Of a DNA stretch of 64,000 nt, positions 14,995 to 21,198 are shown piece after piece. Source of the stretch: Escherichia coli. Lineage in GTDB: Bacteria; Pseudomonadota; Gammaproteobacteria; Enterobacterales; Enterobacteriaceae. Location of the stretch: assembly GCF_029227855.1 (NCBI RefSeq), contig NZ_CP074356.1. One strand, 5' to 3'. How positions within the stretch are numbered: position 1 is the stretch's first letter; each line of letters begins with the position of its first letter. A model generated the notes under the pieces. That model saw only the letters and a list, made by a program, of their open reading frames with translations. It was not told where the DNA came from and did no database searches. Both the position numbers and the translations under genes were made by a program.

Positions 14995-15058
14995 GCACCG
15001 TACTATAGCTGCTTTGGTTATTGTCAGCCTTTGGCACTGACATTCAGGGATGAAACCA

Positions 15059-15877
15059 ATGCAGCTAAGAATCACCAGTCGAAAAAAACTCACCGCTTTA
15101 TTATGCGCTCTTAGGCTAATTTCCATCGTTGCGATTCATCCGCGTCAGACGGTGAATTTTTTCTATTCGACAGCAATTCAGATTAAAGACTACATCCACT
15201 TCTACGGTTATCGCCCGGTTAAATCTTTCGCTATTCGCATTCCTGCCAGTTACACCATTCACGGAATAGATGTTTCGCGCTGGCAGGAGCGAATCGACTG
15301 GCAGCGGGTGGCAAAAATGCGCGATAACGGTATTCGCTTGCAATTTGCCTTTATCAAGGCGACGGAAGGCGAAAAGCTGGTGGACCCCTATTTTTCGCGT
15401 AACTGGCAACTAAGCCGCGAAAATGGCCTGCTGCGCGGGGCGTATCATTATTTTTCCCCGTCGGTATCCGCTTCAGTTCAGGCGAGATTATTTCTGCAAA
15501 CGGTGGATTTCTCACAAGGCGATTTCCCTGCCGTGCTGGACGTAGAAGAACGGGGAAAATTATCGGCAAAAGAATTACGCAAGCGGGTAAGTCAGTGGCT
15601 AAAAATGGTCGAAAAAAGTACGGGGAAAAAGCCGATTATTTACTCAGGAGCCGTTTTTTATCACACGAATCTGGCGGGCTTTTTCAATGAATATCCGTGG
15701 TGGGTGGCTCATTACTATCAACGTCGTCCGGACAATGACGGCATGGCCTGGCGCTTCTGGCAGCATTCCGACCGTGGACAGGTAGATGGCATCAATGGTC
15801 CGGTGGATTTTAATGTGTTTAATGGCACGGTGGAGGAGTTGCAGACATTCGTTAATGGGATTAAAGAAACTCCTTAA
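15059..15877 (+). CDS. yegX: Glycoside hydrolase family 25 (lysozyme-like) protein
   Basis: ORF 15050..15877; start placed at MQLRITSRKK (272 aa); GH25-like pattern (..IHGIDVSRWQ..FAFIKATEG..). Confidence 0.7.
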   Translation: MQLRITSRKKLTALLCALRLISIVAIHPRQTVNFFYSTAIQIKDYIHFYGYRPVKSFAIRIPASYTIHGIDVSRWQERIDWQRVAKMRDNGIRLQFAFIKATEGEKLVDPYFSRNWQLSRENGLLRGAYHYFSPSVSASVQARLFLQTVDFSQGDFPAVLDVEERGKLSAKELRKRVSQWLKMVEKSTGKKPIIYSGAVFYHTNLAGFFNEYPWWVAHYYQRRPDNDGMAWRFWQHSDRGQVDGINGPVDFNVFNGTVEELQTFVNGIKETP

Positions 15878-15928
15878 ATAAGAAGCAGTGATATACTCCC
15901 ACCAGACTCCCTGGCAGGAAAAAGACAA

Positions 15929-16675
15929 ATGGAACAAGCGCATACCCAGCTGATTGCCCAACTGAACGAACGTATTTTAGCGGCGGATAACACGCCGCTT
16001 TATATTAAGTTTGCCGAAACGGTAAAAAATGCCGTGCGCAGCGGGGTGCTGGAGCATGGCAATATTTTGCCCGGTGAGCGTGATTTAAGTCAGTTAACCG
16101 GCGTTTCGCGCATTACGGTGCGCAAGGCGATGCAGGCGCTGGAAGAAGAGGGCGTGGTGACGCGTTCGCGTGGTTACGGTACGCAGATCAACAACATCTT
16201 CGAATACTCGTTGAAAGAAGCGCGAGGTTTTTCTCAGCAGGTGGTATTGCGCGGGAAAAAGCCCGATACACTATGGGTTAACAAGCGTGTCGTGAAATGT
16301 CCCGAAGAAGTCGCGCAGCAGCTAGCGGTCGAAGCAGGAAGTAATGTCTTTTTGCTTAAGCGTATTCGCTATGTCGATGAAGAAGCGGTATCAATTGAGG
16401 AATCGTGGGTTCCTGCGCATTTAATTCATGATGTTGATGCCATCGGAATTTCTCTTTATGACTACTTCCGCAGCCAGCACATTTACCCACAACGTACGCG
16501 TTCCCGCGTTAGCGCCCGGATGCCGGATGCCGAGTTTCAGTCACATATTCAGTTAGATAGCAAAATACCGGTGCTGGTGATCAAGCAAGTGGCGCTTGAC
16601 CAACAGCAACAGCCTATTGAGTACAGCATCAGCCACTGTCGCAGCGATCTATACGTTTTTGTGTGCGAGGAGTAG
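15929..16675 (+). CDS. yegW: GntR-family transcriptional regulator (HTH plus UTRA-type effector domain)
   Basis: 248-aa ORF; N-terminal GntR HTH (..LPGERDLSQLTGVSRITVRKAMQAL..). Confidence 0.8.
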   Translation: MEQAHTQLIAQLNERILAADNTPLYIKFAETVKNAVRSGVLEHGNILPGERDLSQLTGVSRITVRKAMQALEEEGVVTRSRGYGTQINNIFEYSLKEARGFSQQVVLRGKKPDTLWVNKRVVKCPEEVAQQLAVEAGSNVFLLKRIRYVDEEAVSIEESWVPAHLIHDVDAIGISLYDYFRSQHIYPQRTRSRVSARMPDAEFQSHIQLDSKIPVLVIKQVALDQQQQPIEYSISHCRSDLYVFVCEE

Positions 16676-17614
16676 TTCCTCGCGCGTTGGCGCACAATCA
16701 CCGCCCCGATGCCCGACAACCCACGACGCCACTGCATTGCCCAGTAATACGGCATCCGCCAGTGGCAGACCAGAGGCTAGCCCGGCAAGTACGCCACCTG
16801 CATGACTGTCGCCCGCCCCAATGGTGTCTACTACTTGCGTTGGAAATGCCGGAATGCAGCCAGAAGCGTCGTTGCTGAAATACCATGCGCCCTCTTTATC
16901 GAGACGAATGATCAACGGCGCGGCAAATTTCTCCTGCCATTGCTTGCCAAGTGTTGTTATCTCTGCGGATAAAGCAAAACGTTCGGCGGCAATCTCAGCC
17001 TCCTGACGATTGAGTGACACTAAAGGTCGACAGGCCATGATCCGCGCCAGCAATGCATCCGGGATATCGCCAATACGTGGGCCAAAATCGATAAACGGCG
17101 TCACGTCTTGCAGCTTTTCCAGCCATTCCACTAATAATTCGCCGCAGGGCGAGGCCAGTTGATAACCGGAAAAATAGAGCAGGCTGCCAGGCGCAACGGT
17201 TAATCGCGCCAGCCACTGGCGATTCCACTGATTTTCCACACCGCTGAATGACATAAAAGTGCGTTCGCCATCCGGCTCAACCAGCGCCAGACACCAGCCG
17301 TTATCACCTTCGGCGTTATCGATCAGGCTGATTAAGCCCTCTTTTGCCATCCGGTTGCGAATAATCTCCGCCCACACGCCCTGACCGAGCGGCAAGGCGT
17401 TACCCGCTTCGATGCCGAGGCGCTTTAACGCCACGGCAATATTCAGTGCGCAGCCGCCAACGTTAACGCTCTGCTGTTTCAGTTCGATATCGCACCCACG
17501 CCAGGGGAGGGCATAAGCGTCGGCGATCACATCAATGACCGCCGCGCCGACGACCATCACCGGCTGACGCGTGGCTAATTCAGGCAGCAGCGTGTGTAAT
17601 CGAGCGCCGCTCAT
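16649..17614 (-). CDS. yegV: PfkB-family carbohydrate/nucleoside kinase
   Basis: 321-aa ORF with the PfkB signature GAGDSHAGGVLAGL; 3' end overlaps the convergent yegW 3' end. Confidence 0.8.
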   Translation of the reverse strand: MSGARLHTLLPELATRQPVMVVGAAVIDVIADAYALPWRGCDIELKQQSVNVGGCALNIAVALKRLGIEAGNALPLGQGVWAEIIRNRMAKEGLISLIDNAEGDNGWCLALVEPDGERTFMSFSGVENQWNRQWLARLTVAPGSLLYFSGYQLASPCGELLVEWLEKLQDVTPFIDFGPRIGDIPDALLARIMACRPLVSLNRQEAEIAAERFALSAEITTLGKQWQEKFAAPLIIRLDKEGAWYFSNDASGCIPAFPTQVVDTIGAGDSHAGGVLAGLASGLPLADAVLLGNAVASWVVGHRGGDCAPTREELLLAHKNV

Positions 17615-18615
17615 ATCGCCTCCCGTTGTTGGCGATACTTCGCCAGCGCCGTGGCATAGCGGTTGAAATCAAGCTGATTTACCGCATCCAGTTCCGCCTT
17701 TAACGCAGGAACGATAGCGTTAATGCCATGCAACGCGCCGCAGATTGCCGTCGCCATAGCACCGATGGTGTCTGTATCGCCGCCAAGGTTAGCGCAGAGG
17801 ACGGCGCAACGGTTCGGATCGGTTTGTGCCAGTTCAACCAGCGCAATGGCGCACGGAACGGACTCAATAGTGCTGGTACCTGCGCCAACGACCTGGTAAA
17901 GCTGTTCGCTGGCGGATTCGGTGCCGTCGGCATTGCGCACAATTTTCAGCGCAATCTCCAGGCGCGCCGCCAGTGAGGCGCTGAAGGTAGTGATGCGTTT
18001 TTGTTGAGCATGTCGCGCAATTGAAGGCAGTGAATCAACAATTGCTGACCAGCTTTCTCCGTCAATGGCACGAGAAATCGCCCATGCGATGACTACCGCC
18101 CCCGCAACCGCCAGATCGGATTTATGTGTCGGGCTGGAGGCCAGCGCCACATCATCAATAAAGGAATCAACATCACGCGCCGGAAGCAAACAACCTAATG
18201 GCGAGACGCGCATCGCTGCGCCGTTGGTCACGCCGTTATTTTCCAGTTCAGCAACGGGTTTACCGTCGCGAATGGCGTTAAGCGCAATCTTCGAGGTCGG
18301 ACCTAGTACGTTTTTGTTAAAGGCGTCGAAACGCAGCGCCCAGTCGAGAATATTACGCCCAATCAGATCCGGATCGATCTTGCCTTTACGTTCCAGTAAC
18401 GCATCCGCCAGACACAGCGCCATCGAGGTATCGTCGGTGAATTCGGCGCGGTTAAAATAACAGGCCGCGTTATTCTCCTTTGGTCCAGGCAGAAAACGGT
18501 CAATCCAGCCAAAGTGTGCTTTAACGCGGCTGCGTGGCCAAAGCTCGGAGGGCATCCCCATCGCATCCCCTAACGCCTGCCCATAAAGAGCACCGAGAAT
18601 ACGTTCTGTTTTCAT
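17611..18615 (-). CDS. yegU: ADP-ribosylglycohydrolase-family protein
   Basis: 334-aa ORF; DraG/ARH-like motifs (..GALYGQALGDAMGMP.., ..GGDTDTIGAMATAI..). Confidence 0.8.
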   Translation of the reverse strand: MKTERILGALYGQALGDAMGMPSELWPRSRVKAHFGWIDRFLPGPKENNAACYFNRAEFTDDTSMALCLADALLERKGKIDPDLIGRNILDWALRFDAFNKNVLGPTSKIALNAIRDGKPVAELENNGVTNGAAMRVSPLGCLLPARDVDSFIDDVALASSPTHKSDLAVAGAVVIAWAISRAIDGESWSAIVDSLPSIARHAQQKRITTFSASLAARLEIALKIVRNADGTESASEQLYQVVGAGTSTIESVPCAIALVELAQTDPNRCAVLCANLGGDTDTIGAMATAICGALHGINAIVPALKAELDAVNQLDFNRYATALAKYRQQREAI

Positions 18616-19889
18616 TTAACTTCCCCTTGTGTCAACGCAATATCGCGATCATCGACCTTGATAGCCGTAATTTCGTTGTCGGATTCGCGGAAAAAAATCA
18701 TGAACAGCACGGCGATAATGGCAATCATCACCGCGCCAAAAGTCCACATCCCGGACCAGTTGAAAGTCAGTCCGTTTACCGGTTCCTGATAAGCGAACAT
18801 CTTTTCCATCATCACACCGCCAAGACGATAGCCGAGCAAACTGCCGAAGCCCTGGCAGCAGAGTGTGATCAGCCCCTGCGCGGCGGTACGCATATGCACG
18901 GGGGCTTTTTTATCGACATAGATGTAAGCGGTAACGTAGTAAAAATCGTAACTTACGCCGTGCAGCAAAATGCCGAGGAACAGTAACGCGTAGGTGAAAT
19001 ATTCATCCGCACTACCGTAAATAAAGAAGCCATAGCGGATCGCAGCGGTGACCAGACCAAGTAATAATACCTTTTTGATACCAAAGCGTTTGGTGAAAAA
19101 CGGCAATGCCAGCATAAAGAAGATTTCAGAGAACTGGCCGAGCGTCATCCAGCCAGTGGCGTTTTTCATACCGACTTCGGTCAGATAACCGTTGGCAAAG
19201 ATGTAATAGAACGCCAGTGGCATCGCAAACAGGAATGAACAGAAGAAAAAGACGAGGAAGTTTTTATCGCGCAGCAGGATCAGCGCATCCAGGCCGAGCA
19301 TGACTTTAATGTCCATTTTGCCGGTGCTTTTTGGCGGCGTGTCGGGCAGGAAAAACGCAAACACACCGAGCAGAGCAGAACTTCCGGCGGTAATCAGCAG
19401 CGGGATGTTAGTCGGAGAGATATCGGCATAACCCAGCATTTGCGGCAAAAATCCACATGCAAGACCGGAGGCAATCCAGCCGATAGTGCCCATCACACGA
19501 ATGCGTGGGAAATCACGCTCCACATCCGGCACGTTGGCAAAAGCGATACTGTTAGTCAGCGCAATGGTCGGCATATAGGTTAGCGAGTAGGCCAGCAGTA
19601 ACGGGAAGAACCCGGCAAAAGTGGTCTGTTGCGCAGCGAAATACATCAGCGCCGCACCAGCGAACATCAATACCGCCAGCACTTTCTGCGCCGAGAAAAA
19701 GCGGTCAGTGATGGAGCCAACCAGAATTGGCGACAGGATCGCCGCAATGGCGGTACAGGCATACGACCAGCCAATTTCTCCGGCACTAAAACCGCTTTTA
19801 CTTAACCACAACCACAATGGCACAAACCACGCGCCCCAGATAAACCATTCAACAAACATCATGAACGACAGCTTTGCTGTTGTTTTCAT
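18612..19889 (-). CDS. yegT: Nucleoside:H+ symporter-family MFS transporter
   Basis: 425-aa polytopic membrane protein; start of yegU overlaps its stop. Confidence 0.8.
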   Translation of the reverse strand: MKTTAKLSFMMFVEWFIWGAWFVPLWLWLSKSGFSAGEIGWSYACTAIAAILSPILVGSITDRFFSAQKVLAVLMFAGAALMYFAAQQTTFAGFFPLLLAYSLTYMPTIALTNSIAFANVPDVERDFPRIRVMGTIGWIASGLACGFLPQMLGYADISPTNIPLLITAGSSALLGVFAFFLPDTPPKSTGKMDIKVMLGLDALILLRDKNFLVFFFCSFLFAMPLAFYYIFANGYLTEVGMKNATGWMTLGQFSEIFFMLALPFFTKRFGIKKVLLLGLVTAAIRYGFFIYGSADEYFTYALLFLGILLHGVSYDFYYVTAYIYVDKKAPVHMRTAAQGLITLCCQGFGSLLGYRLGGVMMEKMFAYQEPVNGLTFNWSGMWTFGAVMIAIIAVLFMIFFRESDNEITAIKVDDRDIALTQGEVK

Positions 19890-20145
19890 CTTTTAATTCC
19901 TTCATGACAGGTAATGTAAGGTACGCGATGACAATACCATTTAATAATACCTTTTAAATACCTTTGCGGTGAAAACTTGACCGCGGTAACATTTTTTCTG
20001 ATGAATCGAGCCAACAGAAAACGCTGAAAAAACATCCAAAAGATGGAAAAACTCGCCTGTAACGATCAGGATTATGATTGCCCGCAAAAGGCGGGCCAGG
20101 ACAATCCATAGCCGATATCCAATCGGAATTTACGGGAGCATAGTA

Positions 20146-21198
20146 ATGACAGATATTGCGCAGTTGCTTGGCAAAGACGCCGACAACCTTTTACAGCACC
20201 GTTGTATGACTATTCCTTCTGACCAGCTTTATCTCCCCGGACATGACTACGTAGACCGCGTGATGATTGACAATAATCGCCCGCCAGCGGTGTTACGTAA
20301 TATGCAGACGTTGTACAACACTGGGCGTCTGGCTGGCACAGGATATCTTTCTATTCTGCCCGTTGACCAGGGCGTTGAGCACTCTGCCGGAGCTTCATTT
20401 GCCGCTAACCCGCTCTACTTTGACCCGAAAAACATTGTTGAACTGGCGATCGAAGCGGGCTGTAACTGTGTGGCGTCAACTTACGGCGTGCTGGCGTCGG
20501 TATCGCGGCGTTACGCGCATCGCATTCCATTCCTCGTCAAACTTAATCACAACGAGACGCTAAGTTACCCGAATACATACGATCAAACGCTGTATGCCAG
20601 CGTGGAGCAGGCGTTCAACATGGGCGCGGTGGCGGTTGGTGCGACTATCTATTTTGGCTCGGAAGAGTCACGTCGCCAGATTGAAGAAATTTCTGCGGCT
20701 TTTGAACGTGCGCACGAGCTGGGCATGGTGACAGTGCTGTGGGCCTATTTGCGTAACTCCGCCTTTAAGAAAGATGGCGTTGATTACCATGTTTCCGCCG
20801 ACCTGACTGGTCAGGCGAACCATCTGGCGGCAACCATAGGTGCAGATATCGTCAAACAAAAAATGGCTGAAAATAACGGCGGCTATAAAGCGATTAATTA
20901 CGGTTATACCGACGATCGCGTGTACAGCAAGTTGACCAGCGAAAACCCGATTGATCTGGTGCGTTATCAGTTAGCTAACTGCTATATGGGCCGCGCAGGG
21001 TTGATAAACTCCGGCGGTGCTGCAGGCGGTGAAACTGACCTCAGCGATGCAGTGCGTACTGCGGTTATCAACAAACGCGCTGGCGGAATGGGGCTGATTC
21101 TTGGACGTAAGGCGTTCAAGAAATCGATGGCTGACGGCGTGAAACTGATTAACGCCGTGCAGGACGTTTATCTCGATAGCAAAATTACTATCGCCTGA
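20146..21198 (+). CDS. fbaB: Fructose-bisphosphate aldolase class I
   Basis: ORF 20074..21198; start placed at [14 protein letters not shown] (350 aa). Confidence 0.9.

Follow-up and report, generated by a model that had tools for sequence, protein, structure and literature searches.

In Escherichia coli, the repressor gene yegW and the sugar kinase gene yegV are transcribed towards each other and end inside one another. This arrangement raises the questions of whether the shared DNA is more than an accident of gene packing, where the transcripts of the two genes end, and whether one gene can interfere with the other. An earlier note on this DNA had pointed to a convergent overlap at this place and suggested that it could produce transcriptional interference or antisense pairing between the mRNAs of the regulator and the kinase. 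The window referred to below is the whole stretch of DNA analysed, 64,000 nucleotides of contig NZ_CP074356.1 (E. coli, RefSeq assembly GCF_029227855.1); positions without further specification are those of the window, and the + strand is that of yegW.

Based on the ORF list, Pfam searches and the K-12/PGAP annotation, yegW (ggaR) extends over 15929..16675 on the + strand and encodes a GntR/HutC-type repressor of 248 aa with a GntR HTH and a UTRA domain. On the - strand, yegV (16649..17614) encodes a PfkB-family sugar kinase of 321 aa and is the last gene of the yegTUV operon; the upstream genes are yegU (17611-18615; ADP-ribosylglycohydrolase family) and yegT (18612-19889; nucleoside:H+ symporter family), assigned by the same means. 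The neighbours yegT/yegU and yegU/yegV are joined by 4-bp overlaps, and the gene order is that of E. coli, thiMD-yegX-yegW / yegV-yegU-yegT-fbaB. The Pfam matches (E-values from 1e-16 to 1e-56) comprised GntR and UTRA in YegW and PfkB in residues 19-309 of YegV. A published study of GgaR (PMC10819704), in which the GgaR protein and the yegTUV mRNA were both detected by experiment, describes yegTUV as a single mRNA of about 3.3 kb that is repressed by GgaR and silent in the wild type, and as the only target of this repressor. The copy number of GgaR is given there as about 10 per cell in the abstract and 20-30 in the results; the overlap of yegV and yegW is not discussed.

The sequence and the ORF list bear out the 27-bp convergent overlap of yegW and yegV at 16649..16675. 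The stop codons of yegW (16673..16675, + strand) and yegV (16649..16651, - strand) are situated as the earlier note had claimed, and both are TAG. Read on the + strand, the overlap encodes YegW L241-E248 and the stop (LYVFVCEE-stop); read on the - strand, it encodes YegV L314-V321 and the stop (LLLAHKNV-stop). The yegW stop is the antisense of the CTA codon of YegV Leu314, and the yegV stop that of the CTA codon of YegW Leu241. As 27 can be divided by three, the frames of the two genes stay in register, with codon positions facing each other as 1/3, 2/2, and 3/1. An artefact of start-site annotation was ruled out, because a 3′-3′ overlap is set by stop codons alone and these are unambiguous. 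The same overlap is present in the annotation of MG1655, with yegV at 2181096..2182061 and yegW (product "GgaR") at 2182035..2182781, and in the PGAP annotation of a strain that is 100% identical to the window across the 1.9 kb around the overlap.

Both partners are real protein genes on opposite strands that share their 3′ coding ends, including both stops. Homologues in the PDB align nearly end to end with YegW and YegV. YegW aligns with the NagR/YvoA structure up to residue 245, where CRSDLYVFV (YRGDRYTFV in the homologue) makes up the final UTRA strand, and YegV aligns with KDG kinase and ribokinase up to residues 313-316, where PTREELLL (PYREDLEV) makes up the C-terminal PfkB helix. The 27 bp therefore code for the regular structural ends of both proteins, not for tails arising from recent loss of a stop codon. 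A perfect 7-bp palindrome (GCGAGGA-GTAGT-TCCTCGC, 16665..16683) lies across the yegW stop and results from Glu (GAG) codons of one strand facing Leu (CTC) codons of the other. It was rejected as a terminator, as neither strand offers a U-tract and as it lies inside the yegV coding sequence and is missing in Pectobacterium and Leminorella, which retain the 27-bp overlap. It exceeded uniform synonymous recodings in stability (mean percentile 0.20-0.23), but against a biased null, and the palindrome is probably incidental.

Conservation of the junction was surveyed within E. coli and across species. The region was found in 5423 of 5426 complete E. coli genomes, and a 45-bp stretch at the junction was 100% identical in 5280 of these 5423; the surrounding 1.9 kb showed just 95-99% identity in most E. 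coli genomes. Using YegV as the query and one genome per species, 71 loci were obtained, 68 of which had both genes. The two genes were convergent in all 68, and the overlap was exactly 27 bp in 64 of the 68, in genera ranging from Escherichia, Citrobacter, Enterobacter, and Lelliottia to Pectobacterium, Mangrovibacter, and Leminorella, with YegV identity down to 63%. Conservation of both junction and overlap indicates that the arrangement is not a chance, strain-specific feature.

Per-column counts over the distinct orthologous sequences showed how the shared codons vary. Thirteen of the 27 columns of the overlap were invariant, and mean column identity at yegV third positions was 0.97 in the overlap versus 0.62 in the flank that codes for YegV only. 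The yegW stop appeared as TAA/TTA in 42 of 65 sequences and the yegV stop in 14 of 65, the latter never as TGA. Both stops alternate between TAG and TAA only, each matched by CTA or TTA in the partner, so that stops and Leu codons co-vary. The YegW tail, SDLYVFVCEE-stop, is nearly invariant, and the YegV tail, LLLAHK(N/D)V-stop, varies at H, K, and N. The variable sites of the overlap are synonymous sites of YegW, and the YegV residues follow them (N/D/H, K/E, and H/D/N/Y). YegW sets the variation that is permitted, with the YegV tail residues (H/K/N to D/E/H) tracking its synonymous changes. As nearly any substitution or indel would harm both proteins, the arrangement stays at 27 bp across Enterobacterales.

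A few loci depart from this rule. In Citrobacter amalonaticus S646, a tandem duplication of the junction has given each gene its own copy; the Leu codon of YegW is CTG there, and yegV, whose stop is gone, has been extended. In C. sedlakii, a 69-bp insert carries two hairpins and a new YegV tail; among the matches listed, the resulting 320-aa form of YegV made up a protein cluster with 28 members, found on 14 contigs. Neither C. sedlakii nor this one strain of C. amalonaticus needs the overlap. A Yokenella locus lacked 1 bp within the overlap, a change that frameshifts the two genes together and may be a sequencing error, and a Pectobacterium locus had a frameshift upstream in yegV, with the junction retained.

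The best 120 matches of the protein homologue search comprised close relatives only, and the more distant gene contexts were taken from a representative search. A relative with 60% identity in YegV had a 14-bp overlap in another phase and with other tails. In a relative with 49% identity, yegTUV and a GntR-UTRA gene converge with a 35-bp spacer that holds a perfect 8-bp GC hairpin, and in a relative with 42% identity the GntR gene is located upstream and co-directional. Other distant YegV relatives from the representative search had no adjacent GntR gene. As convergence occurs in distant relatives that do not have the 27-bp overlap, it is older than the overlap; the 27-bp state is a derived compaction that was later frozen.

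The complementarity that the antisense pairing proposed in the earlier note would require follows from the overlap itself. Full-length yegW and yegTUV mRNAs are complementary over at least 27 nt, which is forced by the overlap of the coding sequences, and because the coding regions overlap, an intact mRNA of either gene cannot stop before entering the partner gene. Transcript data agree. [quoted passage not shown] Overlap at 3′ ends is common in E. coli, with 276 of 370 (75%) convergent operons overlapping in their 3′ RNA by a mean of 286 nt (PMC4161252), and head-on collisions of polymerases at stem-loops have been proposed as an aid to termination (preprint 10.1101/2022.10.23.513370).

With no intergenic DNA remaining, the signals for the 3′ ends must sit inside the partner gene. 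A consensus scan found no intrinsic terminator-like site at the junction, none on the - strand from the yegV stop to 15000, and none on the + strand from the yegW stop until 19863; this promoter/terminator scan performed at chance level, calling 9 terminator-like sites where 8.3 were expected. No Rfam match was obtained at E ≤ 1 for 15000-20500, and neither yegV nor yegW is mentioned in the accessible parts of the supplements to an E. coli 3′-end mapping study (Adams et al. 2021, PMC7815308).

Folding of the yegV-sense strand revealed a candidate. A stem-loop at 16567..16613 (- strand) consists of 20 pairs in two 10-pair runs, separated by a 1×1 internal loop and closed by a 5-nt loop. It begins 36 nt past the yegV stop, inside codons 209-230 of yegW (LDSKIPVLVIKQVALDQQQQPI), and is directly followed on its 3′ side by a U-rich tract, AUUUUGCUAUCU (16555..16566, - strand), the predicted 3′ end of the yegTUV mRNA (about 2,182,144-2,182,155 in K-12); hairpin and tract together span 36-95 nt past the stop. 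In the window, the minimum free energy of the fold was -26.6 kcal/mol on the - strand (z -3.67, with 0 of 200 shuffles as stable) and -17.5 kcal/mol on the + strand (z -0.36). The K-12 sequence gave -28.8 kcal/mol (z -4.61) and -22.4 kcal/mol (z -2.05), respectively. A stable GC-containing stem (-25.7 to -28.8 kcal/mol, with z values of -3.7 to -4.6) is thus found downstream of the yegV stop, clear of a terminating ribosome. Among all 60-nt windows of the locus on the same strand, however, it reaches no higher than the top 1.7%. The U-tract, too, is a modest one: E. coli has 4 consecutive U, and the first 10 nt beyond the stem contain 5.6 U on average (range 3-7 in 63 sequences). It is weaker than the canonical tract of about 7-9 nt, and the simple consensus scan did not call the hairpin.

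Of 64 orthologous loci that were folded, nearly all had the hairpin, with energies between -15.9 and -40.0 kcal/mol. When 65 sequences were aligned without gaps and the 63 distinct ones counted, 93.4% of the paired cells could pair, versus 20-60% in slid registers. There were 204 G-U cells and 10 A-C cells, and the yegV-sense fold was the stronger one in 57 of the 63. In a recoding test over 62 species, the YegW protein was held fixed for each species and codons were resampled from the gene's own usage. Real hairpins averaged -27.6 kcal/mol and recodings -16.9 kcal/mol, a difference of about 10.7, and the real hairpin fell within the top 5% in 52 of the 62 species, which are related and hence do not amount to 52 independent tests. 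Ten other segments of yegW gave values of 0.3-0.85 in this test. The hairpin thus carries both a strand bias and a signal at synonymous sites of yegW.

Much of this could be read as a frozen accident with no RNA function, in which the compaction is too costly to undo, the hairpin is a by-product of YegW residues (PVLVIKQ versus ALDQQ(Q/H)RP) and codon usage, and both transcripts have diffuse Rho ends. Column conservation does explain most of the pairing, for a column-shuffle control paired at 92.5%, barely under the observed value. Compensatory changes are few as well (6 cells in 3 pairs, mostly from a single Pectobacterium event, G-C to U-A), equally stable hairpins occur elsewhere inside yegV, and the chance frequency of terminator-like sites in the scan suits this reading. 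By-products of protein sequence and codon usage are, however, what the recoding test holds constant, and the hairpin exceeds them while the ten yegW segments, and seven segments in yegV, are flat. The excess of G-U over A-C cells, with its strand bias, and the position of the U-rich tract directly after the stem also speak against an accident, as does a lineage that has an intergenic hairpin and no obvious internal one. C. sedlakii, in which intergenic hairpins were gained, has a weaker internal hairpin (-20.8 kcal/mol), which is suggestive, though a single case. We consider an accident of this kind unlikely.

The same inverted repeat (16567-16613) might instead act on the + strand, in translation or decay of the yegW mRNA, or as DNA, as a GgaR operator or roadblock, given that HutC-type regulators bind palindromes. 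Recodings were, on the whole, less stable than the real + strand fold as well (which lay in the top 5% in 32 of 62 species, at a mean percentile of 0.115), its z value in K-12 is the -2.05 given above, and the arms hold TGGTCAAG/CTTGATCA, with GGTCAAG occurring also upstream of yegT. Yet the G-U pairs systematically weaken the + strand version, and the region is translated on that strand. As to a role as DNA, ChIP-chip located GgaR in two places only, the spacer between fbaB and yegT and the interior of yegT (PMC10819704), and the 9-mer occurs in the window at chance frequency (20 found, 15 expected). The repeat was rejected as a GgaR operator on these two grounds, and action on the + strand or as DNA is altogether very improbable. 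Nor does the site have the properties of a bidirectional terminator: the hairpin is 5-9 kcal/mol weaker on the + strand, where it lies inside translated yegW, and the junction palindrome has no U-tract.

The reading that we prefer for the hairpin and tract (16613 to 16555) is that they probably serve as the yegTUV terminator or as a 3′-protective stem-loop. The 3′-end signal of the operon would be written antisense into codons 209-230 of yegW and be kept there by biased synonymous codons, with G-U pairs that leave it stable in the RNA of the operon but weaken it in the yegW mRNA, which is translated. The yegTUV mRNA would be terminated or stabilised at its 3′ end near 16555-16566, so that its complementarity with the yegW mRNA would extend over about 115 nt.

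For yegW itself, a counterpart hairpin inside yegV was sought and rejected: the recoding test was flat across the last 440 nt of yegV, revealing no selected RNA structure there (0.37-0.67 in seven segments, both strands). The RNA following the yegW stop is C-rich and G-poor, and its first 100 nt (16676..16775, + strand, antisense to yegV) have a C content of 0.41-0.42, a G content of 0.22, and a C/G ratio of 1.9, which exceeds the window's 95th percentile (1.73), as in a putative Rho loading (rut) region. Transcription of yegW would accordingly be ended by Rho loading on this untranslated RNA, and on the evidence of its composition yegW transcripts probably end in this way. Taken as a whole, the yegV-yegW overlap is a genuine one between two functionally linked genes, and it is likely to be ancient and frozen, locked at 27 bp by dual coding, with a probable 3′ signal of yegTUV inside yegW and a probable Rho-dependent end for yegW.

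Whether the overlap also regulates is a separate matter. It might have been selected as an excludon or feedback switch, in which derepressed transcription of yegTUV cuts repressor synthesis, by polymerase collision or by RNase III cleavage of the duplex, so that induction becomes self-reinforcing or hysteretic, and transcription of yegW dampens yegV in turn. The convergence and overlap of a regulator with its sole target would fit such a switch, and convergence extends from Escherichia to Pectobacterium and is seen again in the relative with 49% identity. The presence of yegV-yegW in the core list of ExcludonFinder (PMC12288877) and the absence of an intergenic terminator in the consensus scan are in line with it, and convergent transcription is given as the basis of bistability in prgQ/prgX of Enterococcus, according to a citation in PMC4161252. 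However, the level of GgaR was constant across the conditions tested, in all of which yegTUV was still repressed (PMC10819704), and 3′ overlaps as frequent as 75% of convergent E. coli operons have no known function (PMC4161252). In C. sedlakii both genes are kept with a hairpin-bearing spacer between them, and in the relative with 42% identity the regulator lies upstream and co-directional. Operon transcription, moreover, would be halted by the hairpin some 115 nt into yegW, which resembles insulation more than interference. As to duplex processing, p19 capture of dsRNA yielded no information on convergent pairs.

Selection of the overlap as a switch is on balance unlikely. By its position, the embedded hairpin would limit rather than promote operon transcription into yegW and would shield most of yegW from operon read-through. 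The regulatory effect of the overlap under normal repression is probably small, if there is any; a feedback role, in which induction of the operon lowers repressor synthesis, is conceivable. The most far-reaching version, that yegW holds the antisense terminator of its sole target operon and that the head-on overlap of about 115 nt couples induction to less repressor, as a positive-feedback or hysteresis device across Enterobacterales, we regard as a distinctly long shot.

The arrangement has practical consequences, since editing either yegV or yegW alters the other. Recoding of the yegV stop from TAG to TAA was indeed overwritten by a yegW oligonucleotide (PMC3458525). A standard deletion of yegW of the Keio design would take out the candidate yegTUV terminator, so that published effects on yegTUV mRNA and phenotypes of ΔggaR would not be cleanly trans effects. 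The locus offers a compact example of a candidate strand-specific terminator inside the coding sequence of a neighbour, and of what may be selection for RNA structure on synonymous sites of yegW, possibly on a variable Gln-rich loop of YegW. Natural controls are available in C. sedlakii, with its insertion, and in C. amalonaticus, with its duplication.

As a class, overlaps like this are ordinary, and that of yegV and yegW is already known. E. coli has 663 overlapping gene pairs, 75 of them convergent, and gene order is better conserved in overlapping pairs than in non-overlapping neighbours (PMC4161906). Like other convergent overlapping pairs, yegV and yegW are real genes on opposite strands with common 3′ coding ends and stops within codons of the partner. 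They differ in that the overlap is fixed at 27 bp order-wide and links a repressor with the terminal gene of the one operon that it targets, and in that the shared codons specify canonical fold elements instead of stop-loss extensions.

Convergent excludons and overlapping 3′ UTRs in Listeria, S. aureus, and E. coli likewise involve opposite-strand neighbours with overlapping transcripts. Excludons are marked by mutually exclusive expression and RNase III processing, whereas in yegV-yegW the overlap is coding-on-coding and not UTR-on-UTR, and the likeness extends to transcript overlap only. Intrinsic and bidirectional terminators between convergent genes, as mapped by SEnd-seq, share with the yegTUV candidate a stem-loop and U-rich RNA downstream of the last gene, and a stem-loop in nascent RNA is reported to position the collisions of convergent polymerases (Wang et al., preprint 10.1101/2022.10.23.513370). 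The yegTUV candidate differs from those terminators in lying inside the translated coding sequence of the partner and in being strand-biased by G-U pairs and not symmetric; it has a modest U-tract and a predicted activity.

A parallel in layout is prgQ/prgX of Enterococcus faecalis pCF10, where a repressor gene and the operon that it controls are transcribed towards each other, which allows induction of the operon to silence the repressor (Chatterjee and co-workers, 2011, as cited in PMC4161252). The yegV-yegW genes, in contrast, overlap at their 3′ ends, and any such effect between them is hypothetical. In pCF10 it is at the 5′ ends that the two promoters face each other, across 223 bp, and silencing has reportedly been demonstrated. 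What is added here is a candidate strand-specific terminator inside a repressor gene, the order-wide conservation of the overlap, and its explanation by dual coding.

Natural variants were found in which the 27-bp tail-to-tail overlap of yegW and yegV (16649-16675) is rearranged. At locus L009 of Citrobacter amalonaticus S646, the junction and the adjoining 3' end of yegW are present as a tandem duplication (L009:3940-4080), and thus the overlap is resolved, with one copy used by yegW and the other by yegV. At this locus YegW Leu241 is encoded by CTG, and the yegV stop is lost, with reading continued for 9 further codons. The overlap is retained in two other C. amalonaticus genomes (L019 and L062). 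In Citrobacter sedlakii, a 69-bp insert containing two hairpins lies between the two genes (L020:3958-4035); YegV ends there in a new tail, REQLLVSLKR*, and traces of the former one can still be read within yegW. The hairpin internal to yegW, which is the candidate terminator of yegTUV on the opposite strand, is weaker in this species (-20.8 vs about -26 kcal/mol in relatives). Yokenella regensburgei ATCC 49455 has a 1-bp deletion in the overlap (L030:3940-3985; GCACACAAAAACG to GCAACAAAAACG), which shifts the frame of both genes simultaneously, adding 5 residues to YegV and making YegW approximately 75 codons longer; this deletion could be an error of the draft assembly.

The closeness of the two TAG stops has been encountered experimentally. 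During TAG-to-TAA genome recoding, the oligonucleotide for the yegW stop, located 24 bp away, reverted the converted yegV stop to wild type, and re-conversion of the latter was unsuccessful in one repeat attempt (PMC3458525). Per-column counts of orthologous sequences over 16649-16675 showed natural TAA/TTA variants at both stops.

Within 16555-16675, deleting yegW according to the standard Keio design, which we take to be that of strain JW2088, would eliminate the hairpin that is the candidate terminator of yegTUV; depending on where the deletion ends, the last codon of yegV and its stop may be lost as well. The JW2088 background was the source of the measurements of the 3.3-kb yegTUV mRNA and of the ΔggaR phenotypes, and yegTUV mRNA was only "somewhat reduced" upon complementation from a plasmid (PMC10819704). 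Because of this modest reduction, cis effects of the yegW deletion on the yegTUV results are possible.

A second terminator-like hairpin, AGCGGCG-GATAACA-CGCCGCT, lies on the plus strand, yegW's own strand, 50 nt into the coding sequence (15979-15999), and is followed by TTATATTAAG (tail to 16009). Escherichia and most Citrobacter retain the stem, which is missing from Enterobacter, Pectobacterium and others; the U-rich tail is Escherichia-specific. This hairpin has probably arisen by chance; alternatively, it could serve attenuation of yegW, which is very weakly expressed.

Within the yegTUV operon, yegT-yegU (18612-18615) and yegU-yegV (17611-17614) each overlap by 4 bp, and a stop-start overlap of this size is the usual arrangement for translational coupling inside an operon. 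Just upstream of the yegT start (19889), the region 19920-19962 carries, on the minus strand, three direct GGTAT repeats (19962, 19951, and 19938) and a GTACC (19924), adjoined by an inverted repeat, GCGGT-N9-ACCGC, at about 19969-19987. The 190-bp probe that was bound by GgaR (PMC10819704) spans each of these sequences, and they are therefore candidate operator elements.

YegV itself varies within E. coli. Some genomes encode a variant of 291-295 aa with approximately 91% identity (protein clusters P0005-P0013), and one genome (hit H12) matched over just 69% of the 1.9-kb region, with its kinase annotated without the gene name yegV. Among distant homologues, one of 603 aa (P0143) has its PfkB-like part at residues 296-593, preceded by approximately 295 extra N-terminal residues. 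Distant YegU-YegV pairs (L076, L077, L079, L080, and L081) adjoin nucleoside/nucleobase transporters of the NHS or NCS1 family, one of them additionally adjoining a PNP_UDP_1 phosphorylase and an amidohydrolase. These gene contexts hint that the substrate of the YegU/YegV pathway is nucleoside-like.
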